Notes: generated by a model not told the origin, from the sequence alone. A stretch of DNA of 56,180 nucleotides from a virus (IMGVR_UViG_3300028595_000015:1-56180), one strand, 5' to 3'; positions 2,814-22,104 are shown, numbered from the stretch's first letter. Numbers and translations: made by a program.

Positions 2814-4559
2814 ATGGCATTATCTAACACAGCCGTCCCAAAGTATTATGGTGAATTTAGAGATGCCGTACTAAGAGGTGATTTGCCTGTTTGTAGGGAA
2901 ATCTCTATGGAAATGAATAGAATAGATGATCTTATAAAAAATCCAGGAGTTTATTATGATGATTTAGCTATAAATGGTTTTATACTATATAGCGAAAAAG
3001 AGTTAACACTTACAGATGGTTCTGATTTGAAACTACTAGACAGTTTTAAATTATGGGCAGAGCAAGCTTTATCTTGGTTTTACTATGTAGAAAGATCCAT
3101 ATACGTAAAAGATAAAAACTCAAAAAGAGGTCATTATGAAAAACGAATGATTAAAAAAAGATTAACGAATAAACAGTATTTAATAGTTGCCAGGGGTGCT
3201 GCCAAATCTATGTATGCGTCATTATTACAAAGCTATATGCTTAATATAGATCCGCACACAACTTATCAGATAACTACCGCCCCAACAATGAAACAAGCAG
3301 AGGAAGTAATGTCTCCTATAAGAACTTCGATAATAAGGTCAAGAGGACCTCTTTTTAAGTTTTTAACAGAGGGGTCGTTACAAAACACTACTGGGTCAAA
3401 AGCTAATCGTGTAAAATTAGCGTCTACAAAGAAAGGGATTGAAAATTTCTTAACAGGTTCCTCGTTGGAGATTAGACCAATGAGGATAGACAAATTACAA
3501 GGTTTAAGGTGTAAGATGGCTACTGTTGATGAATGGCTTTCTGGTGATGTTAGAGAAGACGTTGTTGGAGCAATAGAACAAGGAGCTTCTAAAGTTGACG
3601 ATTATTTAATAGTTGCGGTTTCTTCAGAAGGTACTGTTAGGAATGGTTCAGGGGACACAATCAAAATGGAATTATTAGACATATTAAAAGGCGAATATGT
3701 TGCGCCGCATGTTTCTATATTCTATTATAGATTGGATAGCGTTGATGAAGTTGCGGATCCAGATATGTGGGTAAAAGCAAATCCAAATATAGGTATAACC
3801 GTATCTTATGAGTCATATCAACTAGATGTAGAAAGGGCTGAAAAAGCTCCTGCGGTTAGAAACGATATATTGGCAAAAAGATTTGGAATACCAATGGAGG
3901 GGTTTACATATTTCTTCACATACGAGGAAACAATCCCGCATAATAGAAAAAGTTTTTGGAATATGCCATGTGCTTTGGGTGTAGACCTATCACAAGGTGA
4001 TGACTTCTGTGCATTCACATTTCTATTCCCTCTTCCAAACGGAAGTTTTGGGATAAAAACTAGAAGCTACATTACTGAATACACCATGATGAAATTACCA
4101 ACGGCCATGAAAATAAAGTATAACGAATTTATTCAAGAAGGTTCTTTAATGGTTATGGTTGGTAATATACTAGACATGCATGAAGTATATGAGGATTTAG
4201 ATGCGTTTATAATAAAAGAAGAATATGATGTTAGATGTATGGGTTTTGATCCTTATAATGCGAAGGAGTTTGTTGAATGGTGGCAGACAGAAAACGGTCC
4301 TTATGGGATAGTTAAAGTAATACAAGGTGCAAAAACAGAGACAGTTCCATTGGGTGAATTGAAAAAACTCGCTGAACAGAGAGCTTTATTGTTCGATGAA
4401 CAATTAATGATGTTCGCTATGGGTAATGCTATAACTTTGGAAGACACTAATGGGAACCGAAAACTTTATAAAAAAAGAAGAGAAGCAAAAATAGATAACG
4501 TAGCAGCCTTAGTGGATGCATTTATTGCGTTTAAACAGAATAAGGAGGCGTTCGAATGA
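2814..4559 (+). CDS. terL: Terminase large subunit
   Basis: Walker A VARGAAKS, Walker B ATVDEW, WVKANPN, nuclease GVDLS, FDPYNA, KIDNVAAL. Confidence 0.95.
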   Translation: MALSNTAVPKYYGEFRDAVLRGDLPVCREISMEMNRIDDLIKNPGVYYDDLAINGFILYSEKELTLTDGSDLKLLDSFKLWAEQALSWFYYVERSIYVKDKNSKRGHYEKRMIKKRLTNKQYLIVARGAAKSMYASLLQSYMLNIDPHTTYQITTAPTMKQAEEVMSPIRTSIIRSRGPLFKFLTEGSLQNTTGSKANRVKLASTKKGIENFLTGSSLEIRPMRIDKLQGLRCKMATVDEWLSGDVREDVVGAIEQGASKVDDYLIVAVSSEGTVRNGSGDTIKMELLDILKGEYVAPHVSIFYYRLDSVDEVADPDMWVKANPNIGITVSYESYQLDVERAEKAPAVRNDILAKRFGIPMEGFTYFFTYEETIPHNRKSFWNMPCALGVDLSQGDDFCAFTFLFPLPNGSFGIKTRSYITEYTMMKLPTAMKIKYNEFIQEGSLMVMVGNILDMHEVYEDLDAFIIKEEYDVRCMGFDPYNAKEFVEWWQTENGPYGIVKVIQGAKTETVPLGELKKLAEQRALLFDEQLMMFAMGNAITLEDTNGNRKLYKKRREAKIDNVAALVDAFIAFKQNKEAFE

Positions 4560-4560
4560 T

Positions 4561-5049
4561 ATGAATAAATATTACATAGCGCATCATGGTATTAAAGGCC
4601 AGAAATGGGGTTTAAGAAGATATCAAAACCCTGATGGGTCGTTGACACCGGAGGGTTTTAAACGTTATGGAACTGTCGAAAATATGGAACGCTCTAGAGA
4701 TAGAAATAAAAAGATTGCTATTGGGGTTGGTGTTGCTGGCGCAGTAGCGGGGGTAGGTTATCTCGCGGTTAAAAACAGTAAACAAAAATCGAAAATAGAG
4801 TCTTATAAGAAAGCGGACCAGGCAAGAGAAGCTAAAAAAGCTGCCGCAAATGCTAAAAGAGCGGCTACTATAGCCTCTAAAAAAGCAAACGGTACTTGGC
4901 GAACAACTAAAAAAATAAGTATACCAAAGGGGTCTGATGTATCTTTAACTACATTTTTTAGAGATAGAGATGGGCTTAGGACTGATATCATCAAAGACGT
5001 AAAAGAGTATTTGAACGTTTTAGGTGGAACAGTTAAGGCAGGAGGGTAA
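4561..5049 (+). CDS. HGIKGQKWG-motif protein 3
   Basis: IAHHGIKGQKWGLRRYQNPDGSLT; TM-like IAIGVGVAGAVAGVGYLAV; start moved to ATG 4561 after SD AAGGAGG. Confidence 0.7.
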   Translation: MNKYYIAHHGIKGQKWGLRRYQNPDGSLTPEGFKRYGTVENMERSRDRNKKIAIGVGVAGAVAGVGYLAVKNSKQKSKIESYKKADQAREAKKAAANAKRAATIASKKANGTWRTTKKISIPKGSDVSLTTFFRDRDGLRTDIIKDVKEYLNVLGGTVKAGG

Positions 5050-5054
5050 TTAAT

Positions 5055-5540
5055 ATGATAAAAACATATATAGCCCACCACGGTATAAAAGGTCAAAAAT
5101 GGGGAATTCGTCGATATCAAAACGAGGATGGTAGTTTAACACCAGCGGGAGTTCGGCGATATCAACGCCTTGACGAACGGTGGGTTAATAAAAAATCCGA
5201 CAAGATATACAAGAAAGCAATTAAAGAATCTAAACCAGAGATGAGAGAATTTGTTAAAGAACTTCAAAAAAATCATCCCACTGCCGGTAAGAGAACCATG
5301 TATAATATGTATAATAAAAAACTAGCAGAAGTGATGAGAACAAAAACAAAAGATATCGAATCGCCGTCTGGAAAAGTAATCGAATGGGTTGCCAAGAGAG
5401 GAACAATAGGCGTGCATATGGCGTTGGCTGATAGAGGATACGATATTAATAATCTTAAGAATGGTGTTTGGGCTGATGGTAGAATAGCCTATAGAGAAAA
5501 CAAAGTTGACATGCAAAATTCAGGAAGGGACGGTAGGTAA
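5055..5540 (+). CDS. HGIKGQKWG-motif protein 4
   Basis: IAHHGIKGQKWGIRRYQNEDGSLT; basic. Confidence 0.7.
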   Translation: MIKTYIAHHGIKGQKWGIRRYQNEDGSLTPAGVRRYQRLDERWVNKKSDKIYKKAIKESKPEMREFVKELQKNHPTAGKRTMYNMYNKKLAEVMRTKTKDIESPSGKVIEWVAKRGTIGVHMALADRGYDINNLKNGVWADGRIAYRENKVDMQNSGRDGR

Positions 5541-5542
5541 AC

Positions 5543-6823
5543 ATGGGAATGATTGATAGATTAAAACACGCTTGGAATTCCTTTGTTAATGAGGAAAGCA
5601 ATCCTAAAATATTCACTCAAAATTTAGGATATTCAACGTCCTACAGACCTGATAGAAGAACATTTACAAGAGGAAACGAGAAATCTATAGTTACGTCAGT
5701 ATATAATAGAATAGCAATAGATTGTTCAACAATGCCTATAAAACATGTTAAATTGGATGATAACGACAGGTATGATAAATTAATAAAATCTAATTTGAAT
5801 TCCTGTTTGACGTTAGAAGCCAATAAAGATCAACATGCTAGAGCATTTATGCAAGATATAGTTATTTCTTTATTTGATGAAGGGGTTGTTGCTGTAGTCC
5901 CCGTTGACACAAGTGTTAGTATAGAAAAAGGGTCTTTCGATATACATAGTATGAGAACTGGTAAGATAATACAATGGTATCCAGATCATGTTAAGGTTGA
6001 AGTGTATAATGATCGTGAAGGTGTAAAACAAAATTTAACACTACCTAAGAATCGAGTTGCTATTATAGAGAATCCATACTATGCTATAATGAATGAGAAA
6101 AACTCAGTATTACAACGTTTAATAACTAAATTGAATTTGCTGGATACGATAGATAATCAATCAGGGTCCGGTAAGTTAGATTTAATTATACAGTTACCAT
6201 ACGCTATAAAAAGTGAGGCTAGGGAAAAACAAGCCGATCTAAGAAAACAGCGTTTGGAACAACAATTAGCGGACTCTAAATACGGTATTGCATATACCGA
6301 TGGTTCAGAGAAGATAACACAACTTAATCGTCCCGTAGATAACAATTTATTAAAGCAAGTCGAATACTTAACGAGTATGCTGTATAGCCAGTTAGGAATA
6401 AGTAATGCGATATTAAATGGTACTGCGAGCGAGACAGAAATGTTAAATTATCTGCACGGTACTGTAGAACCTATTTTATCCGCGATAATTCTTGAGTTCA
6501 ATAGAAAGTTTTTAACAAAAACTGCAAGAACGCAAGGTCAAACATTAAAATACTTTAACGATCCTTTTAGGTTAGTTACAGTTGCTAATTTGGCAGAAGT
6601 TGCGGATAAGTTCACAAGAAATGAGATAATGACATCAAATGAAATCAGACAAATCATAGGTTTAAAACCTGTAAATAATCCTGACGCAGATTCTCTTAGA
6701 AATAAGAATCTTAACAAGGAAAAAGATTCTGGTGATATTAAAAAAGATGGTGAATTTATCAAAGAGAAACAAGTAGAAGAATCAAATTCTGATACTGGAA
6801 ATGGAGAAATTCAAAATGGATAA
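5543..6823 (+). CDS. Portal protein (HK97-like)
   Basis: 426 aa between terL and the protease; V.SVYNRIA, C-terminal IMTSNEIRQIIGLKP. Confidence 0.9.
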   Translation: MGMIDRLKHAWNSFVNEESNPKIFTQNLGYSTSYRPDRRTFTRGNEKSIVTSVYNRIAIDCSTMPIKHVKLDDNDRYDKLIKSNLNSCLTLEANKDQHARAFMQDIVISLFDEGVVAVVPVDTSVSIEKGSFDIHSMRTGKIIQWYPDHVKVEVYNDREGVKQNLTLPKNRVAIIENPYYAIMNEKNSVLQRLITKLNLLDTIDNQSGSGKLDLIIQLPYAIKSEAREKQADLRKQRLEQQLADSKYGIAYTDGSEKITQLNRPVDNNLLKQVEYLTSMLYSQLGISNAILNGTASETEMLNYLHGTVEPILSAIILEFNRKFLTKTARTQGQTLKYFNDPFRLVTVANLAEVADKFTRNEIMTSNEIRQIIGLKPVNNPDADSLRNKNLNKEKDSGDIKKDGEFIKEKQVEESNSDTGNGEIQNG

Positions 6824-8630: not shown

Positions 8631-8651
8631 TAGTTTAGGTAAACATTTACT

Positions 8652-8972: not shown

Positions 8973-9279
8973 CAGGCTGAAACTGCATGAGGAGCTAAAG
9001 GCTATCCTTGGAACTAACAACGTCTATTTTCAACCACCAGAGTCATTCAAAATGGTTTTACCTTGTATAGTATATACTAGGTCAAACATAAAAAACGAAC
9101 ATGCCGGGGATAATATTTACAAACAATCTTACATTTACGACGTCACTGTTCTTGATAAAAATCCGGATAGTGAAATAGTAGAAAGATTGTCAAAAAAGAA
9201 TTATGCTGTATACGAAAGACGATATGTTTTAAATAACATAGGTCATGATAAGTTTACAGTCACATATAATAAAAACTAA
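8959..9279 (+). CDS. Putative tail terminator/completion protein
   Basis: NVYFQPP...PCIVY motif; lies just before the major tail gene. Confidence 0.65.
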   Translation: MMNASRLKLHEELKAILGTNNVYFQPPESFKMVLPCIVYTRSNIKNEHAGDNIYKQSYIYDVTVLDKNPDSEIVERLSKKNYAVYERRYVLNNIGHDKFTVTYNKN

Positions 9280-9300
9280 TAAAAAAGGAGAAAAGATCTA

Positions 9301-9963: not shown

Positions 9964-9980
9964 TTATTTATTAACTAAAA

Positions 9981-10019
9981 AAAAGGGGTTGCATAAAAAA
10001 CAGCCCCTTTTATTTTTTA
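9981..10019 (+). terminator. Rho-independent terminator after the major tail gene
   Basis: AAAAGGGGTTG / CAGCCCCTTTT stem followed by a T tract. Confidence 0.85.
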
Positions 10020-10058
10020 TTTTTTAACTATACTAAAAAAACAAAGGAGAATTTGGAA

Positions 10059-11040: not shown

Positions 11041-11410
11041 ATTTAAAATTAAAGGGTCTTGGAAAAGAACGGATCGATTTTTTAAGAAATCTGTTAGAGT
11101 TAGTAAATTTGAAAACATTACCGAGCTAGGAGAATTAATAGTAACTCGGTTAAAGACAGCCACGCCTAAGGATTCTGGAATAACAGCAGATTCTTGGGAG
11201 TATGAGGTTATAAATGAGAAAAATAGTAAAACGCTCAGAATAATGAATAGTAACACTCAAAATGGTATTAATATAGCTCTTCTTGTTGAATTTGGACACG
11301 CTAGCGTCAATGGAACTTGGGTAGAAGGGATAAGTTATATAGAGCCAGTAGTTAGAGATTCTTATAATGAGGTTTTATCTAAAACATGGAAGGAGTTGAA
11401 TAAACTATGA
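11033..11410 (+). CDS. HK97 gp10-like tail/neck protein, absent from the ORF track (probable CTG start)
   Basis: Manual translation: (M)VKFKIKGSWKRTDRFF...ATPKDSGITADSWEY...IALLVEFGHA...VEGISYIEP...WKELNKL, 125 aa; fills the gap and overlaps the TMP start (ATGA). Confidence 0.8.
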   Translation: MVKFKIKGSWKRTDRFFKKSVRVSKFENITELGELIVTRLKTATPKDSGITADSWEYEVINEKNSKTLRIMNSNTQNGINIALLVEFGHASVNGTWVEGISYIEPVVRDSYNEVLSKTWKELNKL

Positions 11411-14400
11411 GTCGTTTCGTTGATGAAAGAGTTGTTGAAATGTCGTTTGACAATAAAAAATTTGAAAAAAATGTCAAAACAAGCATGGGCACAATAGATA
11501 AATTAAAAAGTAGTTTAGACTTCTCGGGTACATCAAACGCAATAAGTAACGAATTAGGTAGTATAAATGTGAGCGGATTGACTGCCGCCATGTATAGAGC
11601 AAAACAACAATTCACGGCATTAGAAGTTGTAGCAATAACAGCACTAGCAAACATTACAAACAGAATAGTTAATCTTGGAGTAGAGATGGTAAAATCTCTT
11701 AGTACAGATAACATAGCAGCCGGATGGCAAAAACTAGGACAAATTGCTATAAGCGAAGCAACACTACTTGCTCAAGGGTTTGAACAGGATAAAGTAACAG
11801 AAACGTTAGAAAAATTAACGTGGTTTGCAGATGAAACATCATATTCATTAACAGACATGGTTGATAATATGTCAAAGTTTACAGCTTCTGGTAGAGATTT
11901 AGATGAATCTGCAAATGCAATGATGGGTATAGCAAACTGGGCAGCTTTAGCTGGACAAAACTCTACAAAAGCTAGTACAGCAATGTATCAACTATCTCAA
12001 GCATTAGGTAGAGGATATGTTGGTTGGGCTGATTATAAATCTATAGTTAATGCGAATATGGACATGAGAGAATTCAGACAACGCGCGTTAGATATGGCAG
12101 TTCTTAAAGGAGAATTAGTAGCACTTACAGACGGTTCTTATGCTTCAAAAAACGGTGACATATTTAATATTGATAACTTTACTGAATCCCTCTCTACTGG
12201 GCAATGGTTTACTTCAGACGTTTTATTAGCAACACTTAATGAATACGCAGAAGGAGCTAATAAAATATTTCAATTGATAGCAGATGACGATTCTGTAGAT
12301 ACAGCAACTGAAGCTATAAAAAAATATTCAGATGAGATTGATGCATTTCAATTAAAAGCTTTCTTGGCAGCACAAGAGGCTAGAACATTTAGGGACACAA
12401 TACTGGCAGTTCAAGATGCTGTTTCTTCTGGATACATGATGATGTTTACAAAAGTTTTCGGAGCAGTAAGTGAAGCTAAAGTATTCTGGACAGATTTGGC
12501 AAATGAATTATATAATGTATTTATGGATGGTATGTGGAAAAAAATAGACATATTAGACATATGGGCCAATCTAGATGGAAGAGACGATCTTTTTGCTAAC
12601 ACTGAAGAAAATACAGGCGCTTTCTGGAACTTGTTTAATGCTATAGTTGCAATTAAAGATTTGATAAGTGGTGCATGGCAAGACGTGTTTGGATTTTCTG
12701 AAGCGGAAGAATACGGAAAACAAATTAATGAAATAGCTGTAAAATTAAAAGATTTAACCACTAGATTTAAAGAATTTACTTCAAAATTGTTCTTAAATAA
12801 AGAAGCCACTAAGGATTTGAAAAATATTTTTAGAGGGTTATTTAGTATATTAAAAATAGTTGGAAAAACTTTTAAAGCAGTTTATAAAGGGTTGAAACCT
12901 GTATATGAGGTACTTTCTCAAATTACAGGAAATCTTAATTTACTCGGATTCTTTGGCGATATAGGTAATGCAATAGCTAATTTTGCAGACTCAGATGACA
13001 TGTTTGAAAGTATAACAGAATCTATTTCTGGATTCTTAAAAACTATTATAAATTTTATAGAGAAATCAGAAATTATAGAAACAGTCATGACTGGGGCTAC
13101 AATAGCTGTTAGTTGGCTTGGTGATAAACTTAACACTGTGGTGATACCGACAGTAAAGAAAACAGGACTTTTGTTAGGCTGGCTTGGAAAAGAAATCACT
13201 ATATTATTGGATAAAACAGGAGCATTAATTGCCAAATTTATTAATTGGTTTAAAACGAATGAGAGAATTCAAAATGGTTTTGCAAAGTTTAAATCATTAA
13301 TGGTTACTATAGGGGAGTCGTTTAGTTACGCTCGTGATAAAATAGTAGAATTCTTTAAATCGTTTAATAAAGGGGATTCTGATGGATTTTTAGAATTTTC
13401 TGAAGATGCAGAGAAAAGATTAAAGCCGTTTGCTAAATTTGTAGAAGGTTTTGTTACATTATTAGAAGGTTTATGGACTGTAATAAAAAGTGTGTCTAAT
13501 ACAGTAGGACAATTCTTTAAATTTATAGGAGAAAGCCTTACTAAAATAGGTAATAAATTAAAAGAAATTTTTACAAAAGAAAACGGTGATGTAGATTTTG
13601 CAAAATTATTTACTGTAGGTTTTTGGGGGGCTATCGCAGTTGGTGTATATCGATTTGCTGAAGTTCTTCAGTCAATAACTAGTGTTATTAGAGATGCATT
13701 TGAAGGGATGTTTGATTACTTCAATTCTAAAGCAATGCAACAATATATGGAAGCCATAAAAACAATGTCTATAAGTATAATGTTGATGGTTGCTTCTCTT
13801 ATAATACTTGGTTCAATAGATGAGGGCGTTTTAAAAAGGGGTCTTGCCTCTTTAACTGCATTAATCGCATATATAGTAGGAACTATGATACTAATGAAAA
13901 ATTTAGTGAAAGGTTCAAGTACAAAAAGTATAATAAAAGATGGTCGTAAATCAATAAAAGATACAATAGATATGACTTCTAATCTTGTAGGATTGGGTGT
14001 TGCATTTATGGGGCTTGGGGTTGCCGTAATGTTATTGGCAACTTCGATGAAATTGATTAATACCATGGATCCTAAGGAATTGGCTTACGGGTTATTAATA
14101 GTCGGTTCTTTAATGGGGATGTTAACGGTTGTTATGAGATTGGTTTCGTCTAAAGACAAACAGGTCAACAAAGCTGTTAAATCTATGGTTAAAATGGCTT
14201 TATCGATAGCTTTATTAGTTAGACCATTGAAAAGAATAGGAGGCATTGATACAAAAGTTGCAATTAAAGGACTAATTGGGATAGCCTCATTAATGATAAT
14301 AGTTACTGGATATTCTAGATATAGTAAAGTAATGAATAAATCGCAAAAAGCAGTTTATGGTTTGATTGGTATTGCGGTTGCATTAAACTTAATGATTTTA

Positions 14401-16872
14401 CCTTTAACATTAATAGGCATGATGGATATTTTAAAAATAGGTAAGACTCTTTTGTCGTTGGGTGTTTTGTTTGGTCTGGTAACAGCAGCAAGCAAGTCTC
14501 TTAAATTAAAAGATGCCAATAGATTAAAAGTTTTGGCAAAAGAATTAATAAAATTGTCTATTGCTTTATCTTTCTTTGGGACATCAATGTTAATTGTCGG
14601 TCTTAATAGCTGGAACACAATTGCTAAATCAATTGTTTCAATATCAGGTATATTTATTGCAATGGCATATTTAGGTAAGTCATTAACAAAACCAAGAGTC
14701 GCTAATCTTTCTAAATTGATATGGATGTTAATTCCGTTATCTATTGGTTTATTAGCTTTTGGTGCATCTTTGGTTGGAATCTCTTTAATTCCTTGGAAAA
14801 ACATAGGAAAGTCTATGTTGTTGGTAATTGGGATTCTATCAATGTTAACAATATTAACAAAAGTATTAAAATCAGTAGGGTCTGGACCTAAATCATTATT
14901 GATATTAGGTGTTGCGCTTGGTGTTCTTTCTGGCGGACTACTTCTATTTAGTGTAGCTTTAATTGCTTTGGGGAATATACCATTTAAGGTGATCGCAACA
15001 GGACTTTTAGGTATAATGGCATTATTTGGCATTTTAGTTGGCGTTGGATATTTAATAACTCCTATCATACCGTCTTTATTGGCGTTAGCCACAACCATGT
15101 TAATAATGGCCGGTGCAGTAGCTATTTTTGGAGTTGGTGCTGTTCTTTTGGCGAAAGCGTTTGCAATATTTACAGCAGCAGTCGTTGCCGGAGGTGTCGC
15201 ATTTGGTGTAACATTAGGTTTAATGGCTTCTGCAGTATTAGCGGCAATGCCGACCATAATAGCAGCAATAGGCGAATTCGTTAAAGGCCTTATACAGAAA
15301 TGGATTGAAGTTATTCCATTAGTTATAACCAGTTTCAAAGTGTTTATAGTAGAATTTGTTAAAGCACTTGGCGAATTGATACCTGAAATAGGAGCAGTAA
15401 TTGTAACATTAGGGAAAGAATTATTAAACATAATCGATGAGTTAGCACCAACAATAACTAATACAATGTTGAATCTTATGACGTCTATACTAGATGGTCT
15501 AATTAAACACGCGCCAGATTTGGCTACTAAATTGTTAGATTTATACATTGGTATTTTTAATTCATTACAAACAAAGATACCAGAAATAATGGAATCTATG
15601 AGATTGTTTATAACAGAAATAATCATTGCGGCAGTCGATGAGATAACGGCGTTCTATCCAATGTTAGTAGATGAAGGTTTTAGATTAATCATAGGTTTAT
15701 TAGACGGTTTGGGGTTAGCGATAGAAGAGAATTCAAGTAAAATAAATGAAGCAATGAAACGCTTCGGTAATCACATTTTGCAAGCTTTCAAAAACTTCTT
15801 CGGAATAAATTCGCCTTCAACCGTAATGGCTAGTCTTGGAGGTTTCTTAGTACAGGGGCTTATTAAAGGTTTGTGGGATAATTTAGTATATTTACTACAA
15901 TCTATAGGTACTTGGGTAAGAAATATATGGAACACTCTAGTTACAAAATTCCTAGAAGCAATTGACATGGGTAAAACATTGGTCCTTAATATTAAAGATG
16001 GAGCCGCTAGTGCATGGGGTACTATAAAAGAATGGTTTTCGGAAAAAGCTACTTCTATAGTTGACGTATTTAGTAACATTAAAGGCTTTATAAAAAATGC
16101 TGGCCGTGATGTCTTAGGTAATTTTAAAGAAGGATTCAAGAATGCTTGGAATGGAGCTTTGGGTATAGCTAGATGGATTGGCGAGAAAGTTGATTGGATA
16201 AAAGATACGTTTAGGAATTTGCCAGAATCATTTAGAAATATAGGTGGCAACATAATGGACGGTTTAAAAGAAGGCCTTAGAGACACTTGGCATAAGGTAA
16301 AAGAAGTATTAAACACTCTAGTTGGATATTTACCATTATGGGCTCAAGATTTACTTGGTATAGCATCGCCATCAAAGGTATTTAAAGAGATAGGTGGTTA
16401 TGTATCAGAAGGTATGGCCGTCGGTATTGATAGTAACACAAAAATGGTTAAAAAAAGCGCTTTGGATATGGCGGATGGAGCTATAGATAGCGTTGAAAAA
16501 TCTGGTATGAATAATGCACTATCTTCCATTCTAGATATGCTTTCTGGAGAATTTGATAATGAGATAGTTATAAAACCAGTGTTAGATCTTTCAGAAATTC
16601 AAAATGGAAAAAATTTAATGAGTAGTATGTTATCGGGTAATTATGGAATAGATGTGTCAAATTCAATGGCAAATGTTGTAAGAGATAATATTAATAAGCC
16701 CGCTGACAAAAATAACAAAACAAACACCACTTCCTCTGGAGAAAATAATGGTGCAGAAATAATTAACAACACATTTAACATAACAGGAGCAAATCCTAAA
16801 GAAATCGCAGAGGAGGTTTCTAAAGTATTACAAAATCAAGTAGATAGGAGAAAACTTAGATGGGGAGTATAA
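11407..16872 (+). CDS. Tape measure protein
   Basis: 1821 aa; tape-measure domain (L.WFADETSYS...YQLSQA), long hydrophobic central region, FGINSPS/LGIASPSK motifs. Confidence 0.93.
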   Translation: MSRFVDERVVEMSFDNKKFEKNVKTSMGTIDKLKSSLDFSGTSNAISNELGSINVSGLTAAMYRAKQQFTALEVVAITALANITNRIVNLGVEMVKSLSTDNIAAGWQKLGQIAISEATLLAQGFEQDKVTETLEKLTWFADETSYSLTDMVDNMSKFTASGRDLDESANAMMGIANWAALAGQNSTKASTAMYQLSQALGRGYVGWADYKSIVNANMDMREFRQRALDMAVLKGELVALTDGSYASKNGDIFNIDNFTESLSTGQWFTSDVLLATLNEYAEGANKIFQLIADDDSVDTATEAIKKYSDEIDAFQLKAFLAAQEARTFRDTILAVQDAVSSGYMMMFTKVFGAVSEAKVFWTDLANELYNVFMDGMWKKIDILDIWANLDGRDDLFANTEENTGAFWNLFNAIVAIKDLISGAWQDVFGFSEAEEYGKQINEIAVKLKDLTTRFKEFTSKLFLNKEATKDLKNIFRGLFSILKIVGKTFKAVYKGLKPVYEVLSQITGNLNLLGFFGDIGNAIANFADSDDMFESITESISGFLKTIINFIEKSEIIETVMTGATIAVSWLGDKLNTVVIPTVKKTGLLLGWLGKEITILLDKTGALIAKFINWFKTNERIQNGFAKFKSLMVTIGESFSYARDKIVEFFKSFNKGDSDGFLEFSEDAEKRLKPFAKFVEGFVTLLEGLWTVIKSVSNTVGQFFKFIGESLTKIGNKLKEIFTKENGDVDFAKLFTVGFWGAIAVGVYRFAEVLQSITSVIRDAFEGMFDYFNSKAMQQYMEAIKTMSISIMLMVASLIILGSIDEGVLKRGLASLTALIAYIVGTMILMKNLVKGSSTKSIIKDGRKSIKDTIDMTSNLVGLGVAFMGLGVAVMLLATSMKLINTMDPKELAYGLLIVGSLMGMLTVVMRLVSSKDKQVNKAVKSMVKMALSIALLVRPLKRIGGIDTKVAIKGLIGIASLMIIVTGYSRYSKVMNKSQKAVYGLIGIAVALNLMILPLTLIGMMDILKIGKTLLSLGVLFGLVTAASKSLKLKDANRLKVLAKELIKLSIALSFFGTSMLIVGLNSWNTIAKSIVSISGIFIAMAYLGKSLTKPRVANLSKLIWMLIPLSIGLLAFGASLVGISLIPWKNIGKSMLLVIGILSMLTILTKVLKSVGSGPKSLLILGVALGVLSGGLLLFSVALIALGNIPFKVIATGLLGIMALFGILVGVGYLITPIIPSLLALATTMLIMAGAVAIFGVGAVLLAKAFAIFTAAVVAGGVAFGVTLGLMASAVLAAMPTIIAAIGEFVKGLIQKWIEVIPLVITSFKVFIVEFVKALGELIPEIGAVIVTLGKELLNIIDELAPTITNTMLNLMTSILDGLIKHAPDLATKLLDLYIGIFNSLQTKIPEIMESMRLFITEIIIAAVDEITAFYPMLVDEGFRLIIGLLDGLGLAIEENSSKINEAMKRFGNHILQAFKNFFGINSPSTVMASLGGFLVQGLIKGLWDNLVYLLQSIGTWVRNIWNTLVTKFLEAIDMGKTLVLNIKDGAASAWGTIKEWFSEKATSIVDVFSNIKGFIKNAGRDVLGNFKEGFKNAWNGALGIARWIGEKVDWIKDTFRNLPESFRNIGGNIMDGLKEGLRDTWHKVKEVLNTLVGYLPLWAQDLLGIASPSKVFKEIGGYVSEGMAVGIDSNTKMVKKSALDMADGAIDSVEKSGMNNALSSILDMLSGEFDNEIVIKPVLDLSEIQNGKNLMSSMLSGNYGIDVSNSMANVVRDNINKPADKNNKTNTTSSGENNGAEIINNTFNITGANPKEIAEEVSKVLQNQVDRRKLRWGV

Positions 16873-17609
16873 CATTTAATAACATATCTACAAACAGCAT
16901 GGGGGTCGTAGTTCAGGCCCCTCCTGTTTATGAATTTCCAGCTAGGAACATGTCCTCTGCAAGCATTAATGGTCGCAATGGAGATATACTGATAGATAAA
17001 AACTCTTATAAAAACGTAGTTAGAGAGTATAGTTTAGCAGCCGCGTTGGATACGACAGAAGGTGCGTTTGTGGATAAAGTTCGTGAAATAGTTGACTGGT
17101 TATCAACGGTTAATGGTTACGCCAGATTGACTGATACATACGAGCCAGAGTATTTTAGATTGGCTGCTTTTAGATCAGGAGGCGCAATGCCAAACTTTTA
17201 CGACCAAGCAACCGCTATAAAAATAAAGTTTGAGTGTAAACCTCAAAGATTTTTAATATCGGGGGAGGATCCGATAGTAGACAATAACTATCAAGAGGGT
17301 AGATGGATAAATGTCCCAAATCCTACAAAATATATAGCTTTACCAGAAATAACAATCAACGGTGAAGATGTTAATTTAAAATTCTCAGAATCTAATAATG
17401 GTGATATTATTTCTGAGATTAGTATAGACGGAACACTAGTAAACGCCATAATTGATTCTGAATTACAAGATTGTTATGACGAAACACAGTATTTAAATAA
17501 TAACACAGAAACAATAAATGGATTTCCAAAACTATATCCCGGAGACAATTGGATATTCATAAATGAAGGGATAAGCTTATCAATTAAACCAAGATGGTGG
17601 GTGTTATAA
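16860..17609 (+). CDS. Distal tail protein (Dit)
   Basis: Follows TMP; ITFNN.ST, I.GRNGD, F.CKPQRF, FPKL.PG.N, I.PRWW pattern. Confidence 0.8.
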   Translation: MGSITFNNISTNSMGVVVQAPPVYEFPARNMSSASINGRNGDILIDKNSYKNVVREYSLAAALDTTEGAFVDKVREIVDWLSTVNGYARLTDTYEPEYFRLAAFRSGGAMPNFYDQATAIKIKFECKPQRFLISGEDPIVDNNYQEGRWINVPNPTKYIALPEITINGEDVNLKFSESNNGDIISEISIDGTLVNAIIDSELQDCYDETQYLNNNTETINGFPKLYPGDNWIFINEGISLSIKPRWWVL

Positions 17610-20600
17610 ATGATTAGAATATATGATAAGGATGAAACGTCATTCGATAAACTTGGGCTTGGTAGCTTAGATGATACTTTAGCTGCTGTTGTAGTAGAAG
17701 AGTTAAATGGGGAATATGAGCTTGAGATGGAGTACCCATTATCGGGTAGACATTTCGATAAAATAAAGATTCAGAATATTATATTTTGTAAATCAAATGT
17801 TAATTCGGATCCGCAACCTTTTCGTATATACTCTATTACAAAACCTATTGACGGCGTAGTAACAATTAATGCAGAACATATTTCTTATGATATGAATGGT
17901 ATATTAATATTACCAAAAAGAGTGGAGAATTATGTAAGTGTTTATATCATAAGTGATTTAGAAGAGGATAGATACAAAGAGCAATGGCTATCATTGACTG
18001 TTGATGGTAATGCGCTAGATCCAGATTCAGACGCGATTTATATTGTAAAATCTGAAGGAGATTATTATAATAATCTATACGTTTGGGATTATTTACGTAG
18101 TATTTATGAAGAGGTTAATAGTCATGCTTTTCCAATAGCGTCTTATGGAACAAAAGTAACTATTGGTGATGAAGAGGGTTATCAACTAGGAAGTATCATA
18201 GCAGGAATCAATGCAGCAACAGCCCTTCCTTTAAAAAATCCTTTTACAGTTTATAAAGGAAATGATAAGGAAAATGAATTAAAAGAAGAAGGTTTTAAAA
18301 TAAGTAAACCGATGTCTCTAAGACAAGTATTAGGAGGTTCGACAGAGTCTTTGCTTGAAACATTTAAAGGAGAATTGTCTTTTGATGGTTTTAGAGTTTA
18401 CTTAAACAACAAAAGAGGCGTTGATCGCGGGATAACAATTCGTTATGGTAAAAACATGACGGATTTAGAACATGAAGAAGAAGGAACAAGTCTATATACA
18501 GGAATATTTCCTTTTTATTCTAAAGCTTACTCGGAGTCTTTTACAAGTACTAGTCCAGTATTTCAAGAAGCTTATATAGTAGACGGAGCAATAGCATTTA
18601 CCGCTGGATGGTTATCTACAGAGATAGCAGATGCTGATGCATTGACAGGAGGTATTCCTCTAAAACCAATAGTAGAAGCTTCTAGAGTTTTAATTGGCGC
18701 TGTTAATGAAGTGGTAGAAAGATATGCACCAATGATCATTAAAACAGAGGGCGATAATGAAGATAAGATTGTTGTCTTTAAAAAGAATAAAAAAGCAACT
18801 GAAGATGAACCAGCAACATTATTTGATGTTTGGGTAGATTTTGATGTAGTAAATGATTTAGAGGTTGTTTCAAACATTTATAGTAGTATAGATAAAACTC
18901 CAGAAACACTTATGACTCCTGAATTTGGGATGATATACAGAGTTATGGATGAAGAAGCAACAGAATTATTTAGTAAAAATATTATTTACGTTGATTCAGA
19001 AATAGGATTTATCGTGTATGATAGTGATGGGTTTTATCATTTTGCAGAAGATGCAACCAAAGTTAGTGATTCCACACCATTACCTTTAATAATTCCATTG
19101 TATAAAATAAGTTGGAATGAAGTTAATGAAGAATGGGAAAAAGATTTAGATAACGGAAAATACTATGCTAGACCTATCAAACCATCCGTTTCAACAGAGA
19201 GTGTAGAAAAGTATGTTTATGTCGATCTTCAAAGACATCAGGTAGAAGACGGTTCTGATACAATACTTCAAAATGGAATAATATATGTTAATGAAACTTT
19301 AAAAAATAGAGACGTTCAAAACATTTTATCACTTGATTTAACATCTGATATAGATGCAATAGGTGGTTTAAATCCAGAGGATGTCACTAGAGATCACGTG
19401 TTTAATAAAGCAGAGAAATATTTAGAGGATAATGATTTAACAAAAACAAAAGAAACAATAACCATAGCTTTTGCAATGTTATCTGATAGTGCTGAGTATG
19501 AGCATCTTAAAGGGTTAGAAATCGTTGAAATTGGAGATGAAATCGGCGTTGTTTATGAAAATTTAGGAGTTAACGCAAAACACAGGATTATAGCAACAGA
19601 ATATGACGTTTTGACAGACTCTTATATTTCTATAGAATTAGGAGAAAAACAAAAAAGCATAAGTAATAACGTTGTTACTTCTGGTGATAATGTATCTACT
19701 CTTAAAAATGATTCTGAATACACAGACAAAGAATACATAACAAAACTTATTGCGGAGAATGCGGAGATAATAAATGCTGAGATACAAAACGCTTTTATAG
19801 AGACATTGAAAGTTGCCAAGGTAGATGTTACAGGTTTAATTGAAGCAACTAGTGCTTCTATAGATTCGCTAATAGCAAAATTATTGGTTGCAGAAGATGC
19901 AGAAATTAAAAATGCATTAACCGCAGGTGCTTTAAAAGTACGTGGAGATATAGATGTCGATAGTGGTCATATTAAGATAAAAAGAAGAACCGACATAACA
20001 ATTACAAACGTCTACACTAGAGATGGAGAAGAAGCTTACTCATCAACATGGCTAAGCGATTCTTTTGGTGGAACATCATTAATACCTAATGAAAATACTT
20101 CATACCTAATAAAATCAACAGGTAATTATAAAAATATTCTTGTTGGTTGGGATTCAACTAACAGTAGTTACTATAGACTAAGTCAGTATATATTTGAAGT
20201 CGATAGAGAAGGTAATTTAACTGCGCAATCTGTTAATATAGAAGGCGGTATAATAACAATAGGGAATGATATTTTTACAGTTGATCGTAATGGTCTTGTT
20301 AAATCTGAGAATATTTATATAAAAGACGGATATGCTGATAAAATGGACGTTGGAGAAATGAACGTTAATGAAATCACTGTTGATGAGATATTTTTTACAG
20401 ATAGTGACGTTTCGTTAAAAAGAATTTCAGAAGGTAATTTCGAATCGCACGAAGTCAACATCATGGCAAATGGTGTAATAGTTAACAATGTTTTGACGAT
20501 TACAATAACCCCAACGTATAGTTTATATTCCAATAAAGTTATAAAAGTTAGTTATACTTATAAAGATGCATTAGGTAATTTATATCCTGGAATGATTAAT

Positions 20601-20888
20601 ATTACATTAATAGCTGGTGCACCAAACGCGTCGGCTGATATAAATTTAGGACCTGGGACTTGGTTTGTTGAGAACAAATTTAACAGAGTATTTCCAACTA
20701 CTTTTACGGAATCAAGAATTAATGGTAGCAGTGATAGTTTGGTAATAGTTATAAATGGTCAGGAGTACGATATAATAACAGGAATAACGGCCAATGATAA
20801 CGGGCCAATTTCTATAGAAAACGAATTACCAAGCGGAGATGGTATGAGAAATAACTATATGGTATTTGTTTTTAGAGAACAAAGTTAG
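17610..20888 (+). CDS. Tail-associated (Tal/hub) minor structural protein with inserted modules
   Basis: EELNGEYELEMEYP, QPFRIY, AEHISYD, RG.DRG.TIRYGKN.TD, GDEI.V motifs of Firmicute-siphovirus Tal; C-terminal coiled/beta-helical tract. Confidence 0.8.
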   Translation: MIRIYDKDETSFDKLGLGSLDDTLAAVVVEELNGEYELEMEYPLSGRHFDKIKIQNIIFCKSNVNSDPQPFRIYSITKPIDGVVTINAEHISYDMNGILILPKRVENYVSVYIISDLEEDRYKEQWLSLTVDGNALDPDSDAIYIVKSEGDYYNNLYVWDYLRSIYEEVNSHAFPIASYGTKVTIGDEEGYQLGSIIAGINAATALPLKNPFTVYKGNDKENELKEEGFKISKPMSLRQVLGGSTESLLETFKGELSFDGFRVYLNNKRGVDRGITIRYGKNMTDLEHEEEGTSLYTGIFPFYSKAYSESFTSTSPVFQEAYIVDGAIAFTAGWLSTEIADADALTGGIPLKPIVEASRVLIGAVNEVVERYAPMIIKTEGDNEDKIVVFKKNKKATEDEPATLFDVWVDFDVVNDLEVVSNIYSSIDKTPETLMTPEFGMIYRVMDEEATELFSKNIIYVDSEIGFIVYDSDGFYHFAEDATKVSDSTPLPLIIPLYKISWNEVNEEWEKDLDNGKYYARPIKPSVSTESVEKYVYVDLQRHQVEDGSDTILQNGIIYVNETLKNRDVQNILSLDLTSDIDAIGGLNPEDVTRDHVFNKAEKYLEDNDLTKTKETITIAFAMLSDSAEYEHLKGLEIVEIGDEIGVVYENLGVNAKHRIIATEYDVLTDSYISIELGEKQKSISNNVVTSGDNVSTLKNDSEYTDKEYITKLIAENAEIINAEIQNAFIETLKVAKVDVTGLIEATSASIDSLIAKLLVAEDAEIKNALTAGALKVRGDIDVDSGHIKIKRRTDITITNVYTRDGEEAYSSTWLSDSFGGTSLIPNENTSYLIKSTGNYKNILVGWDSTNSSYYRLSQYIFEVDREGNLTAQSVNIEGGIITIGNDIFTVDRNGLVKSENIYIKDGYADKMDVGEMNVNEITVDEIFFTDSDVSLKRISEGNFESHEVNIMANGVIVNNVLTITITPTYSLYSNKVIKVSYTYKDALGNLYPGMINITLIAGAPNASADINLGPGTWFVENKFNRVFPTTFTESRINGSSDSLVIVINGQEYDIITGITANDNGPISIENELPSGDGMRNNYMVFVFREQS

Positions 20889-20914
20889 AAAATTATTTAT
20901 GAGGAGAACTTAAA

Positions 20915-21313
20915 ATGAAAGAAAAAAAACCAGTTTCAAAAATGAATAAACCAGAATTACTAGAAGAAGTAAAAAGACTTAAAGATATCGAAGAACGTTA
21001 TTTTAGGGCAGAAACAAAATTTGAAAATATGAAATCGGCTAGAGAGAGTGATTTATTAGAGGTTGACGAGGCTCGAAAAATTAAGAGAGAATCGAAAGCA
21101 AAAGAACAACTGATGGTAAACGCATATAATAGTCAAATTGAACATCTAAAAAAAACAGTAAAAGAGCAATCAGAATTAATCTTAAGTTTGTTTGATACAA
21201 CAGATAATTTATTTAATCAGCAACGTTTCTTTTATAAAAAATATAAAGGGATTTTTATTTCAGACGAAGAAATAAAAAAGGAAGCGATTGATGATGAAAA
21301 AGTAAAAGAATAA
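20915..21313 (+). CDS. Coiled-coil protein of unknown function
   Basis: SD AGGAG; charged heptads. Confidence 0.6.
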   Translation: MKEKKPVSKMNKPELLEEVKRLKDIEERYFRAETKFENMKSARESDLLEVDEARKIKRESKAKEQLMVNAYNSQIEHLKKTVKEQSELILSLFDTTDNLFNQQRFFYKKYKGIFISDEEIKKEAIDDEKVKE

Positions 21314-21330
21314 TAGGAGGTTAAGCTTAC

Positions 21331-22104
21331 ATGGCTACATATAAAGGATTATTTTATGTCTATAATGAAACAGAAAATGATTTTGATATTTTAAAACCTG
21401 ATATAGACGCGGATAATGTTATTGGCGGAGTATTTCATTTAGATAGAATTCCAGAATTGACGCTGGATAAAATACCAACTTTGGATTCTTCTAAAATACC
21501 AGATTTAAATGCTTCTAAAATCACAGATGGAATTTTAGATCCTGCATTATTCCCAGCAATAGCAATTAGTTCTGTGCATACAGTAACATCAATGGCATCT
21601 TTGTCCGTTATTTATACTGGCTCAGAACTACAGTCTGGGGATGTTGTCATATCAATAAATGAAAACAAGTCATATATTCATAACGGAGGTACTGCAGGGG
21701 ATGCCTCTGATTTCACAGAATTAAAAACCCCTACATCAGGAGTTACATCTGTTAATTCCATGACTGGTGCAGTAACATTGACAAAAGCACACATAGGTCT
21801 AAACAATGTTGACAACACTGCAGATGCTTCTAAAAATGTTTTGAGCGCTTCAAAATGGACTAATTCTAGAAAGTTAACATTAGGAGGAGATGCTACTGGG
21901 GAAGTAACTTTTAATGGTGAAAATGATTTTACATTAACGGTTACCGTTGCTAATAATTCGCATGAACACACTATTAGCAACATTACTAATTTAGGAGATA
22001 CGCTTTTAGCGAAACAGGACAAAATAGACGTTATAACACAAGCGACATTCTCGTCGTTGTCAACAAGTGGATTAAATGACGGTAAAATTGTATTTGTCCA
22101 TTAA
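21331..22104 (+). CDS. Tail fibre-like protein
   Basis: IP.LD.SKI repeats, VTSVN.MTGAVTL, GL.NVDNTAD, L.GDATG.V.F.G, H.HTISNIT.L fibre motifs. Confidence 0.75.
   Translation: MATYKGLFYVYNETENDFDILKPDIDADNVIGGVFHLDRIPELTLDKIPTLDSSKIPDLNASKITDGILDPALFPAIAISSVHTVTSMASLSVIYTGSELQSGDVVISINENKSYIHNGGTAGDASDFTELKTPTSGVTSVNSMTGAVTLTKAHIGLNNVDNTADASKNVLSASKWTNSRKLTLGGDATGEVTFNGENDFTLTVTVANNSHEHTISNITNLGDTLLAKQDKIDVITQATFSSLSTSGLNDGKIVFVH

Follow-up and report, generated by a model that had tools for sequence, protein, structure and literature searches.

The closest described systems are viruses that encode an RNA polymerase of their own. For the gp96 and gp64 polymerases of Thermus phage P23-45, short conserved motifs have been described upstream of mapped transcription starts, and among the relatives described there, a motif was present only where the matching enzyme was encoded (bioRxiv 10.1101/2022.12.01.518664). 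YonO of the Bacillus prophage SPbeta is a single-chain two-barrel polymerase that transcribes the phage late genes as a single long operon with one mapped start; the promoter sequence is given in that account as not known (PMC5467207). Late promoters of vaccinia and other poxviruses are described as TAAAT followed by G, overlapping the start codon (PMC11980589).

The DNA analysed here, referred to below as the window, is a stretch of 56,180 nucleotides (IMGVR_UViG_3300028595_000015:1-56180) from a siphophage of the Lactococcus 1706 / Faecalibacterium FP_oengus / actinophage supercluster. The hallmark of this supercluster is a single-chain two-barrel RNA polymerase with fused HTH modules, and the polymerase has been presented as the signature gene of the phage family (bioRxiv 10.1101/842583). 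The features of the window that bear on the repeated word TCAAAATGG are collected in Table 1.

Table 1. Copies of TCAAAATGG in the window and the genes relevant to them
Feature	Coordinates	Strand	Frame	Context
Motif copy	3661..3669	+	xKM	Inside large terminase (TerL) gene, codon 283, Ile-Lys-Met
Motif copy	6811..6819	+	xKM (capsid-gene frame)	Capsid-protease fusion gene probably starts at its ATG (6816)
Motif copy	9047..9055	+	xKM	Inside tail-terminator-like gene 8959-9279, codon 30
Motif copy	11257..11265	+	QNG	Small ORF 11243-11410; tape-measure gene 150 nt downstream
Motif copy	13269..13277	+	QNG	Inside tape-measure gene, codon 621
Motif copy	16599..16607	+	QNG	Tape-measure gene near 3' end, codon 1731, IQNG
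Motif copy	19268..19276	+	QNG	Inside Tal-like tail gene 17610-20888, codon 553
Motif copy	21850..21858	+	SKW	Inside tail-fibre-like gene 21331-22104
Motif copy	52637..52645	+	QNG	Isolated copy in Cas4/RecB-like exonuclease gene; 118 nt upstream of polymerase gene
Structural-gene block	2814..22104	+		Terminase to tail fibre; holds 8/9 copies (gene calls, PHROG)
RNA polymerase gene	52755..55724	+		Predicted single-chain two-barrel enzyme; two N-terminal and one C-terminal HTH modules
HNH endonuclease	516-944
Endonuclease	51799-52119

The word occurs nine times on the plus strand of the window and not once on the minus strand. A preliminary description of this DNA had listed these positions, with gaps of 3150, 2236, 2210, 2012, 3330, 2669, and 2582 bp between the first eight, had seen no copies between about 22 and 52 kb, had assigned the copies to three reading frames (xKM, QNG, and SKW), and had put the expectation from composition at about one copy per strand. 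The recount reproduced all coordinates, the strand, and the gaps exactly, and the frames agreed. An exact search of the window returned zero copies in 21858-52637, and Markov models of order 0-5 gave expectations of 0.50-1.02 on the plus strand and 0.10-0.31 on the minus strand. Dinucleotide shuffles of the window contained 0.77 copies on average and at most 3 (nine or more in 0 of 100 shuffles), whereas shuffling of synonymous codons with all proteins kept gave means of 2.4-2.8 and a maximum of 7 (nine or more in 0 of 1000). The word ranked twelfth among the over-represented 9-mers of the window (order-3 Markov, p = 2.4e-7), and its count in the window alone is of borderline significance after correction for all 9-mers; it is the replication in relatives that settles the reality of the motif. 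The recurrence of the word on one strand is real. No paper describing the motif was found. A second strand-biased word of the window, GATATT, was mostly in-frame GAT-ATT and represents a coding artefact.

The motif is a trait of the whole phage family and not an oddity of the window. In 80 related loci, the coding strand carried 346 copies of TCAAAATGG and the opposite strand a single one, against 17.0 and 7.1 copies expected, so that the antisense strand is depleted of it. The 8-mer core TCAAAATG was one-stranded and enriched in all ten further family genomes (90 vs 1), in which the reversed-word controls gave 14 vs 19; these comprised phages of Lactococcus, Curtobacterium, Gordonia, Streptomyces, Microbacterium, Arthrobacter, and Rhodococcus and an oral phage. 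The word is kept across phages whose hosts belong to two phyla and whose G+C content ranges from 29 to 61%. Outside the family, it was not enriched in five unrelated phages of the same host genera (5 vs 4), nor was TCAAAATG in SPbeta (5 vs 9; controls 2 vs 6). Five prophage-carrying host chromosomes (2.7-6.9 Mb) contained only 33-114 copies, on both strands, without enrichment, at about 1.2-2.0 times the reversed-word control (23-61 copies). In the two hosts with listed hit positions, G006 and G010, some of these copies formed one-stranded clusters, and both clusters of G010 are prophages of the window's phage family. The absence of enrichment from the host chromosomes and the five unrelated phages indicates that the reader of the motif is phage-encoded and not a host factor.

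Within the family, the position in TerL is the most conserved one and is occupied in 69 of the TerL-assigned sites. The copy at 6811 is preceded by GGAG and shares bases with the end of the portal gene; the start of the capsid gene carries the motif in 32-35 related loci as well as in HotFries, Mudcat, and Schwartz33. The position homologous to the copy at 11257 is filled in 29-32 related loci, and the one equivalent to the copy at 16599, which lies 261 nt upstream of the Dit gene, is filled in relatives G001, G003, and G004. The copies at 9047 and 21850 lie 254 nt upstream of the major tail protein gene and 280 nt upstream of the next gene, respectively. Placement within the tape-measure genes differs from relative to relative. 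Copies in the exonuclease gene were found at three sites in all loci studied, one of them in a second prophage of G010, and they occupy three different codons and phases; such variation in position ahead of the polymerase gene suggests that the placement is convergent.

The word's own ATG is a called start codon in 149 of 366 copies (~41%), and a Shine-Dalgarno sequence precedes 138 of the 151 start-like copies. The copies that are not on start codons are internal to genes in all three frames (69, 107, and 72 by phase), many of them deep in long genes. Per genome, the word marks the start of about 3 of some 25 late genes, and internal copies make up more than half. The region 15-100 nt upstream of gene starts was not enriched in the motif (ratio to random 0.5-1.1). 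In five genomes, 8/9, 7/7, 12/17, 7/8, and 3/3 of the copies (71-100%) lie within the block from TerL to the lysis genes, which forms 36-46% of each genome (45% in the window); in FP_oengus, four copies lie in the early region. Spacing is even: the seven gaps between the first eight copies of the window have a coefficient of variation of 0.19 (p ~1e-4 with the six inner sites placed at random), and the median spacing across the family is 1.9 kb. A gap below 500 bp occurred in 3% of 29 distinct site maps vs 55% under random placement, with a Fano factor of 0.33.

Several results show that selection acts on the nucleotides. Fourteen protein contexts in the window could encode the word synonymously, and it is spelled out in 8 of 9 within 3.6-22 kb vs 1 of 5 elsewhere. 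At the TerL site, 84% of sequences use ATC and 88% use AAA; at the other conserved columns, the corresponding shares are 11-44% (Ile) and 24-76% (Lys). Since three frames are used and the synonymous codons of TerL are constrained, it is the nucleic acid, not the protein, that is under constraint, as the preliminary description had supposed. None of the refuting outcomes it had named was observed: the codon-shuffled null was exceeded, the minus strand was empty, and relatives showed the same enrichment, partly at non-homologous positions. Almost no conservation was found in the sequences flanking the word, and no RNA structure around it (MFE -24.0 vs -25.9 kcal/mol in 227 sites and 222 controls); the word itself pairs slightly less than control positions do (0.52 vs 0.45).

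The product of gene 52755-55724 is predicted to be a single-chain two-barrel RNA polymerase of the YonO / QDE-1 / P23-45 gp64 kind. The gene was assigned to PHROG 4291 (E = 0), with C-terminal sigma-r4/HTH Pfam matches, and the DxDGD metal-binding loop is present as GADFDGD at residues 516-522. Its AlphaFold model (pLDDT 74) matched QDE-1, RDR2, and the Thermus-phage polymerase entries 8f72 and 8f5m, and 8h2m weakly; the Foldseek E-values were 4e-7 for QDE-1, 1e-6 for RDR2, and 1.4e-5 for phage P32 gp64, with low TM-scores of 0.21-0.37. No sequence-level match between YonO and the window polymerase was found in the phage collection. In 24 sequences, each of the three HTH modules has at least two (nearly) invariant residues within the predicted recognition helix or next to it, and S114 and R117 of the second HTH are invariant. 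The ES[ST]VR recognition helix, also found in 1706 and HotFries, is invariant from phages of Actinobacteria to those of Firmicutes, and the C-terminal HTH recognition helix is variable among motif-carrying phages. Of the 80 loci, 47 have the polymerase gene in their upstream flank; where this flank spans the full 10 kb, the gene is present in 35 of 36 loci, and the 36th carries it at another place in its genome. In the genomes compared, which were polymerase-carrying family members and five unrelated phages of the same hosts, motif presence follows this gene: the word was enriched in all family genomes tested and in none of the unrelated phages. Phage MT835495 is devoid of the DNA polymerase, helicase, and annealing protein of the window and keeps the RNA polymerase and 11 motif copies; therefore, a primase was excluded as the reader of the motif.

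We tentatively interpret TCAAAATG(G) as a cis-acting transcription signal, most probably the late promoter or initiator of the phage's single-chain two-barrel RNA polymerase, and give this interpretation slightly less than even credence. It is supported by the strictly uniform orientation of the copies relative to the genes (9 vs 0, 346 vs 1, and 90 vs 1), the evidence for a phage-encoded reader, the polymerase as the signature gene of the family, the concentration of copies in the TerL-to-lysis block, the selection on nucleotides, the conserved HTH residues, the precedents in P23-45 and vaccinia, and the counts of sigma-70-like sites and terminator-like hairpins given below. We infer that the polymerase reads the motif and starts transcription there, and likewise where the start would lie. 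Of the three functions put forward in the preliminary description, a late-promoter core would be the best fit; a signal for stepwise DNA packaging or ejection would have nothing in its favour beyond polarity, and the antitermination or processivity site is considered below. In the proposed mechanism, the polymerase gene at the right end of the early/middle region would be expressed first, and its product would recognise the word via the fused, conserved HTH modules. It would then initiate rightward at copies that recur at steps of ~2 kb between the terminase gene and the tail-fibre genes, and transcription would be re-seeded along the ~20-kb block, in which host-type promoters and terminators are not in excess. 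As ATG is part of the word, it would be accommodated at the least costly places, namely at start codons (portal, capsid, and connector) and at tolerant tripeptides (I/F-K-M, Q-N-G, and S-K-W) in long genes. Sigma-70-like sites were at chance level in every third of the window. Terminator-like hairpins numbered 6 vs 8.0 expected by chance in 1-20 kb and 5 vs 4.7 in 40-56 kb, and they were above chance in 20-40 kb (16 vs 6.9).

A narrower version is more doubtful: TCAAAATG(G) may be a self-sufficient initiator-type promoter read by the fused HTH with the ES[ST]VR helix, with transcription starting in the A-run, at or just before the AUG as in the late genes of poxviruses, and with even ~2 kb copies re-seeding a terminator-poor 20-kb late block. 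If true, this large polymerase family would gain its first defined promoter, one that predates, without change, the split of the lineages that infect the two phyla. Several observations count against a promoter. As 149 of 366 copies are on a start codon, a transcription start downstream of the word would truncate that gene, and even spacing is not usual for promoters. Copies occur deep in long genes, and none were found in the first genes past the left end (185-2802) or in the genes from 22130 to 27969. The variability of the C-terminal HTH helix, the absence of enrichment in SPbeta and upstream of gene starts, and the early copies of FP_oengus also count against it. RNA-library contigs over a related prophage region did not end at motif sites, although contigs cannot show starts.

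Among the alternatives, it is unlikely that one of the conserved family nucleases (HNH, endonuclease, or Cas4/RecB-like) nicks one strand specifically at the word or places another DNA-level mark there, in the manner of the one-strand interruptions of phage T5 and Pseudomonas phage tf. An exact, short word on one strand only, with almost unconserved flanks, would suit a nick site, all three nucleases have homologues in G001, MT835495, FP_oengus, 1706, and HotFries, and the density of nick sites in phage tf is reportedly similar to that of the word (~1 per 2-3 kb). However, the copies are mostly restricted to the structural-gene block and not spread genome-wide, their orientation follows the genes, and copies in the reverse orientation are rarer than expected, a depletion not required of a harmless nick site; besides, an HNH gene next to the terminase is a common arrangement in cos phages. 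Rather unlikely, too, is a signal for elongation control in the non-template strand or the nascent RNA (pausing, anti-termination, or processivity re-loading), with a logic like that of ops/RfaH. It would agree with the restriction to the sense strand, the copies within genes that show no preference for promoter-like upstream positions, the even spacing, and the concentration in a long co-directional block; however, known sites of this type number one or few per operon, near its start, no cofactor gene is evident, and start-codon enrichment is explained no better than by a promoter. The word could also act in the mRNA, as an endoribonuclease cleavage site at which a long late transcript is divided into units or as a special AUG initiation context, to which we assign a low probability. 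Its sense-strand location, the AUG that so often serves as the called start codon behind a Shine-Dalgarno sequence, and the slightly lower base pairing speak for this role. Nevertheless, the internal copies are distributed over three phases, their out-of-frame AUGs open just 2-30 codons, flanking RNA structure is absent, and 21 other gene starts of the window are unlike the word (2-6 mismatches). Moreover, the gene of the abundant major tail protein has a start copy in just one site in all loci studied, and the reader would have to be shared between Actinobacteria and Firmicutes, although the word is not enriched in host genomes.

The remaining explanations have far lower probabilities. Orientation-dependent repressor sites that block elongation, like the stoperators of cluster A mycobacteriophages, are very unlikely: 1706 and the actinophage clusters, which are described as virulent or lytic, keep the word. 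Stoperators are described as asymmetric sites spread over the phage genome (PMC9283540), and FP_oengus has an integrase, but no repressor gene is common to the family, and neither an integrase nor a repressor was found in the gene annotation of the window (PHROG). A host polar motif (Chi-, KOPS-, or DNA-uptake-like) accumulated by the phage is highly improbable and, as far as the counts allow, refuted. Polar words of 8-9 letters exist in bacteria, and the uniform orientation would fit one; however, the host counts given above, the retention of the word in phages of two host phyla with widely differing G+C content, and its lack of enrichment in unrelated phages of the same hosts argue against it. 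Finally, chance or a coding by-product (a favoured peptide or codon pair) has a negligible probability. The borderline count in the window and the precedent of GATATT could be cited for it, but it is refuted by the codon-shuffle null, the use of three frames, the constraint on synonymous codons, and the replication of the enrichment in every family genome tested.

Exact short polar words at kilobase spacing, as the word is, are also found in the T5 and tf nick sites, Chi, and KOPS; unlike Chi and KOPS, the word has no host-wide enrichment, and unlike the nick sites, its copies are mostly confined to one gene block. Stoperators keep one orientation relative to transcription, but they are repressor sites of temperate phages, whereas family members that lack lysogeny genes retain the word. 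The T4 late promoter TATAAATA and the T7 class II/III promoters are short or phage-specific, co-oriented with the genes, often overlap the upstream coding sequence, and occur about once per 2 kb, all of which holds for the word; unlike it, they precede genes that have a leader. The T4 promoters are served by the host core enzyme together with phage factors, and those of T7 by a right-hand single-subunit enzyme with a 23-bp site. SPbeta differs from the window's family in that TCAAAATG is not enriched, though YonO is the best-studied enzyme of this kind. P23-45 has the same enzyme class, as judged from the matches of the window polymerase model, but its motif sequences are unrelated to the word, and transcription starts and polymerase occupancy were measured there, whereas the word is known from sequence alone. 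In addition, the P23-45 motifs lie upstream of pre-early and early genes, whereas the word lies in late structural genes, often in coding sequences or on a start codon, and is evenly spaced. The poxvirus late element, as described in the source cited above, precedes each late gene, whereas the word is found at about 3 of some 25 late gene starts and is internal in more than half of its copies; the two are alike in the A-run followed by TG, in the ATG that is commonly the start codon, in the late class of the genes, and in the virus-encoded two-barrel polymerase.

The word TCAAAATG was found nine times on the + strand of the window, at 3661, 6811, 9047, 11257, 13269, 16599, 19268, 21850, and 52637, as reported in the preliminary description, and a check of the minus strand revealed zero copies. 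The copies occupied three reading frames (xKM, QNG, and SKW), as had also been claimed, and their number exceeded a codon-shuffle null in which every protein was kept (mean, 2.4–2.8; maximum, 7; none of 1000 shuffles with nine or more copies). The expected word count in the window was 0.77 according to dinucleotide shuffles and 0.5–1.0 according to Markov models. The full word accounted for nine of the 11 + strand occurrences of CAAAATG; therefore, all nine letters matter. Within the window alone, the word ranked merely 12th among the over-represented 9-mers, and its seven gaps had a coefficient of variation of 0.19 (P ~1e-4 under random placement). That the word is a product of chance is hardly credible.

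The window is a complete virus record of 56,180 bases with a completeness rating of 93%. The gene calls placed all of its genes on the + strand, and the PHROG and Pfam scans revealed a siphophage gene layout.

Annotated features of the window
Feature	Coordinates	Strand	Basis
HNH endonuclease	516–944	+	PHROG/Pfam
Large terminase	2814–4559	+	PHROG/Pfam
Portal	5543–6823	+	PHROG/Pfam
Capsid-protease fusion	6801–8630	+	PHROG/Pfam
Major tail protein	9301–9963	+	PHROG/Pfam
Tail assembly chaperone	10053–10433	+	PHROG/Pfam
Tape measure	11407–16872	+	PHROG/Pfam
Dit	16860–17609	+	PHROG/Pfam
Tal-like	17610–20888	+	PHROG/Pfam
Fibre-like	21331–22104	+	PHROG/Pfam
Holin	27217–27699	+	PHROG/Pfam
Small-gene region	after holin	+	
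Primase-polymerase	37864–41709	+	PHROG/Pfam
Helicase	42943–44253	+	PHROG/Pfam
Cas4/RecB-like exonuclease	52116–52751	+	PHROG/Pfam
989-residue polymerase	52755–55724	+	PHROG 4291

Within the capsid-protease fusion gene, 8–9 tandem 12-base repeats (GACCCTAAGGAT-like) at 7287–7400 encode a short acidic/basic peptide repeat, which is probably a linker joining the two capsid-protease domains. The gene at 22444–26505 encodes a 1353-residue protein with fibronectin-III-like domains; it lies in a stretch with a G+C content of 42%, compared with 33% for the genome, a G+C rise being observed at 22–24 kb, and carries zero motif copies despite its location in the structural block. The protein encoded at 45229–46182 matched Pfam Tad6, a Thoeris inhibitor (E = 6e-12), and DUF5662, and is a candidate anti-defence protein. 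An extended ribosome-site context, GGAGAACTTA followed by 1–5 bases (mostly A) and ATG, was present at five starts (20903, 28694, 41722, 48329, and 48724), and three more window copies of GGAGAACTT were intragenic. Near-identical terminator-like hairpins (AAGAGCTAC.TATGCTCTT, then a T-run) at 50912–50930 and 51297–51315 were located 385 bases apart, downstream of two small genes. The intergenic stretch 51370–51610, which sits between two twin terminator-like hairpins, contained six direct TTGTGTCAC(TT) copies and inverted TTTTTGACACA copies; these words were also clustered in the IMG/VR relative G001 (12929–13148), and the cluster looks like an origin or operator array.

The relatives of the window comprised Arthrobacter, Gordonia, Streptomyces, Rhodococcus, Microbacterium, and Curtobacterium phages, Lactococcus phage 1706, and Faecalibacterium phage FP_oengus, a supercluster corresponding to the group described in a preprint (bioRxiv 10.1101/842583). 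The accessible portion of that text gives an HTH-bearing polymerase homologue, the activity of which is inferred only, as the signature gene, counts ~250 sequenced phages and many gut prophages in the supercluster, and contains neither the term “promoter” nor the term “repeat.”

The preliminary description had named a lack of enrichment in relatives as a refuting outcome; enrichment was present on the coding strand of the family genomes. The IMG/VR relatives G001–G005 carried seven, three, nine, six, and two coding-strand copies, respectively, MT835495 carried 11, and none of them had a copy on the opposite strand; G003 and G004 have a G+C content of 43% and a capsid identity to the window of just 41%. 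In FP_oengus (50% G+C), the counts were 17 and 1. The surroundings of terminase genes from bacterial assemblies and MAGs (80 loci; 1.256 Mb; 29–53% G+C) contained 346 coding-strand copies (17.0 expected) versus a single copy on the opposite strand (7.1 expected), with at least one coding-strand copy in all 80 loci. Phage 1706 kept the first eight letters of the word but not the ninth (8-mer sites at 7198, 9036, 11418, 12767, 15486, 18762, and 21231, and also at 36935); position 9 is not retained in Lactococcus phages. The high-G+C actinophages retained the word at a few sites (HotFries, three; Schwartz33, five; Mudcat, four in its first 50 kb). Ten further genomes of the family all showed the 8-mer as one-stranded, with 90 forward copies and 1 reverse copy in total; the reversed-word controls gave 14 and 19.

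Five host genomes bearing prophages of the family contained 33–114 copies over both strands, compared with 23–61 for the reversed-word control. Some copies formed one-stranded clusters in the two host genomes with listed positions (G006 and G010), and the second cluster of G010 proved to be another family prophage with 10 copies on a single strand. Across five phages that infect Lactococcus, Streptomyces, Mycobacterium, and Faecalibacterium and are unrelated to the family, five copies were forward and four were reverse, and SPbeta had five and nine on its two strands. The host-genome counts and the unrelated phages of these hosts thus excluded, almost to certainty, the word as a host motif.

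The terminase-to-lysis block, which constitutes 36–46% of each genome, held eight of the nine window copies, all seven in G001, 12 of 17 in FP_oengus, seven of the eight 8-mers in 1706, and all three in HotFries. The median of 307 gaps was 1908 bases, and only 10 gaps were shorter than 750 bases, versus ~89 under an exponential distribution; 29 loci with distinct site maps had 3–7 copies per 11.7 kb (Fano factor, 0.33), and 3% of these maps had any gap below 500 bases, versus 55% under random placement, all these spacing figures being inflated by the shared ancestry of the loci. The site maps varied among loci, and neighbours tended to accompany lost sites. For example, the SKW site of the window was lost (GCT AAA TGG), with a copy 680 bases farther along.

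A comparison of flanks showed that the nine letters alone are fixed. The Firmicutes phages had a weak A-run from -5 to -2, T at -1, and A at +9, and no conserved pattern was found around the word in actinophages. The ATG of the word was the likely start codon in 151 of 399 copies, 138 of which had a Shine-Dalgarno sequence; the 248 internal copies were distributed over the three phases as 69, 107, and 72. A second gene caller placed 149 of 366 copies on a start codon and revealed no enrichment 15–100 nt upstream of starts. Ordinary gene starts in the window had 2–6 mismatches to the word. Recurrent positions were terminase codon 283 (69 sites), codon ~40 of the homologue of gene 10459–11040 (SKW; 47–49), the portal start (39), the capsid start (32–35), the start of the gene next after the capsid gene (35), and a small ORF ahead of the tape measure (29–32). 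The positions varied in the tape-measure, tail, and exonuclease genes, and the start of the major tail protein bore the word in one site only. Judging from these sequences, the word positions are in part ancient. At the terminase site, Ile was encoded by ATC in 84% of 76 genes, versus 11–44% at 18 other conserved Ile columns, and Lys by AAA in 88% of 80 genes, versus 24–76% at 20 other conserved Lys columns. The word represents strong selection on synonymous sites and amino-acid choice within conserved structural genes, maintained across very deep divergence and 29–61% G+C.

Whatever reads the word has to be encoded by the phage and conserved across both actinophages and Firmicutes phages. MT835495.1 (L026/L027; 69.8 kb) kept the structural genes, nucleases, RNA polymerase, and 11 motif copies and had no homologue of the DNA polymerase, helicase, or annealing protein of the window; either its replication module was exchanged or the scaffold is chimeric. 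The presence of the motif in this genome leaves, besides the structural proteins and the RNA polymerase, three nucleases and two small proteins as candidate readers, and a primase site was rejected, since MT835495 has no primase-polymerase. We infer that the polymerase is most likely the reader. The 989-residue protein matched PHROG 4291 (“RNA-dependent RNA polymerase,” E = 0) and contained GADFDGD; its predicted model (pLDDT 74) resembled the two-barrel QDE-1, RDR2, and Thermus-phage entries 8f72 and 8f5m, and a sequence comparison with solved structures gave zero significant matches. Of the 80 loci, 47 carried the gene in their flank; among the 36 loci with full flanks, 35 did so, and the remaining locus had it elsewhere within its genome. 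The protein has two N-terminal HTH modules and one C-terminal module. Two residues of the second module, S114 and R117, were invariant among 24 sequences, and its helix ES[ST]VR was also present in 1706 and HotFries. The C-terminal HTH, with its more variable helix, was dropped because the recognition helix varies among motif-bearing phages; preferring the conserved N-terminal HTH is only a guess. The four DUF7211 paralogous genes that flank the terminase gene (1790–2332, 2329–2802, 4516–5049, and 5055–5540) were rejected as readers, since they are confined to the Firmicutes subclade, whereas actinophages retain the word. These paralogs have a common N-terminal HHGIKGQKWGIRRYQNEDGSLT motif, and the polymerase N-terminus (52755–52900) has a comparable HYGTPRHSGRYPWGSGD stretch that is kept in 24 sequences; both could be a common targeting or processing signal, in which case the question of polymerase packaging arises.

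The most likely function of the word is that of a late promoter or initiator, a reading that we hold tentatively, at somewhat short of even odds. Counter to it, the copies lie on start codons and within genes rather than upstream of genes, the late block has no copies ahead of the terminase gene or beyond 21858, and FP_oengus has four copies in its early region. In addition, the even spacing suits re-loading, pausing, or nicking equally well. An elongation-control site, a nick or other DNA mark, and an action at the RNA level are each considered unlikely. No RNA structure was found around the word. A stoperator-like site is very improbable, and the residual probability is reserved for explanations yet unimagined.

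Transcripts were checked in assembled contigs from four RNA libraries of one study (X1, X2, X4, and X5) on the Ruminococcus torques prophage region L069:10500–20499. The contigs covered this region at a depth of 0.2–12, with DNA carry-over possible, and contig ends (e.g., 16072/16101 and 17856), which cannot show starts, were off the motif sites 10848, 11760, 13974, 16214, and 18543. The libraries contained 83–91% of the structural-region words of this prophage at low depth; transcription or induction of the prophage during culture is possible, as is DNA carry-over. The sigma-70 promoter and terminator scans were uninformative in this A+T-rich genome, with terminator-like hairpins enriched only in 20–40 kb. 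GATATT/TGATATTT, which resembled a companion signal for the non-structural part of the genome, was rejected and attributed to a coding effect: its strand bias (window, 96 vs. 11; G001, 118 vs. 12; FP_oengus, 69 vs. 9) was absent in MT835495 and 1706, and 66–85% of the copies were in-frame GAT-ATT (Asp-Ile). GATATT was likewise strand-biased in G003, HotFries, and Schwartz33.

No mention of the word was found in the literature on the family phages, 1706, YonO, and ReqiPepy6/ReqiPoco6, supplements excluded. The word may serve as a simple metagenome marker of the phage family and of late-gene orientation. An invariant word of 8–9 letters with a full position list offers a concrete and cheap test of how single-chain two-barrel RNA polymerases find start sites; for one of them, YonO, the promoter is explicitly called unknown in one report (PMC5467207). 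The word makes promoter recognition by this polymerase class directly testable, and family members can be cultured on laboratory strains of Lactococcus, Arthrobacter, Gordonia, and Streptomyces. Two precedents support the promoter reading: Thermus phage P23-45 has two single-chain two-barrel polymerases, whose mapped starts carry short motifs (10.1101/2022.12.01.518664), and in poxviruses the start codon is overlapped by the late element TAAAT(G) (PMC11980589).
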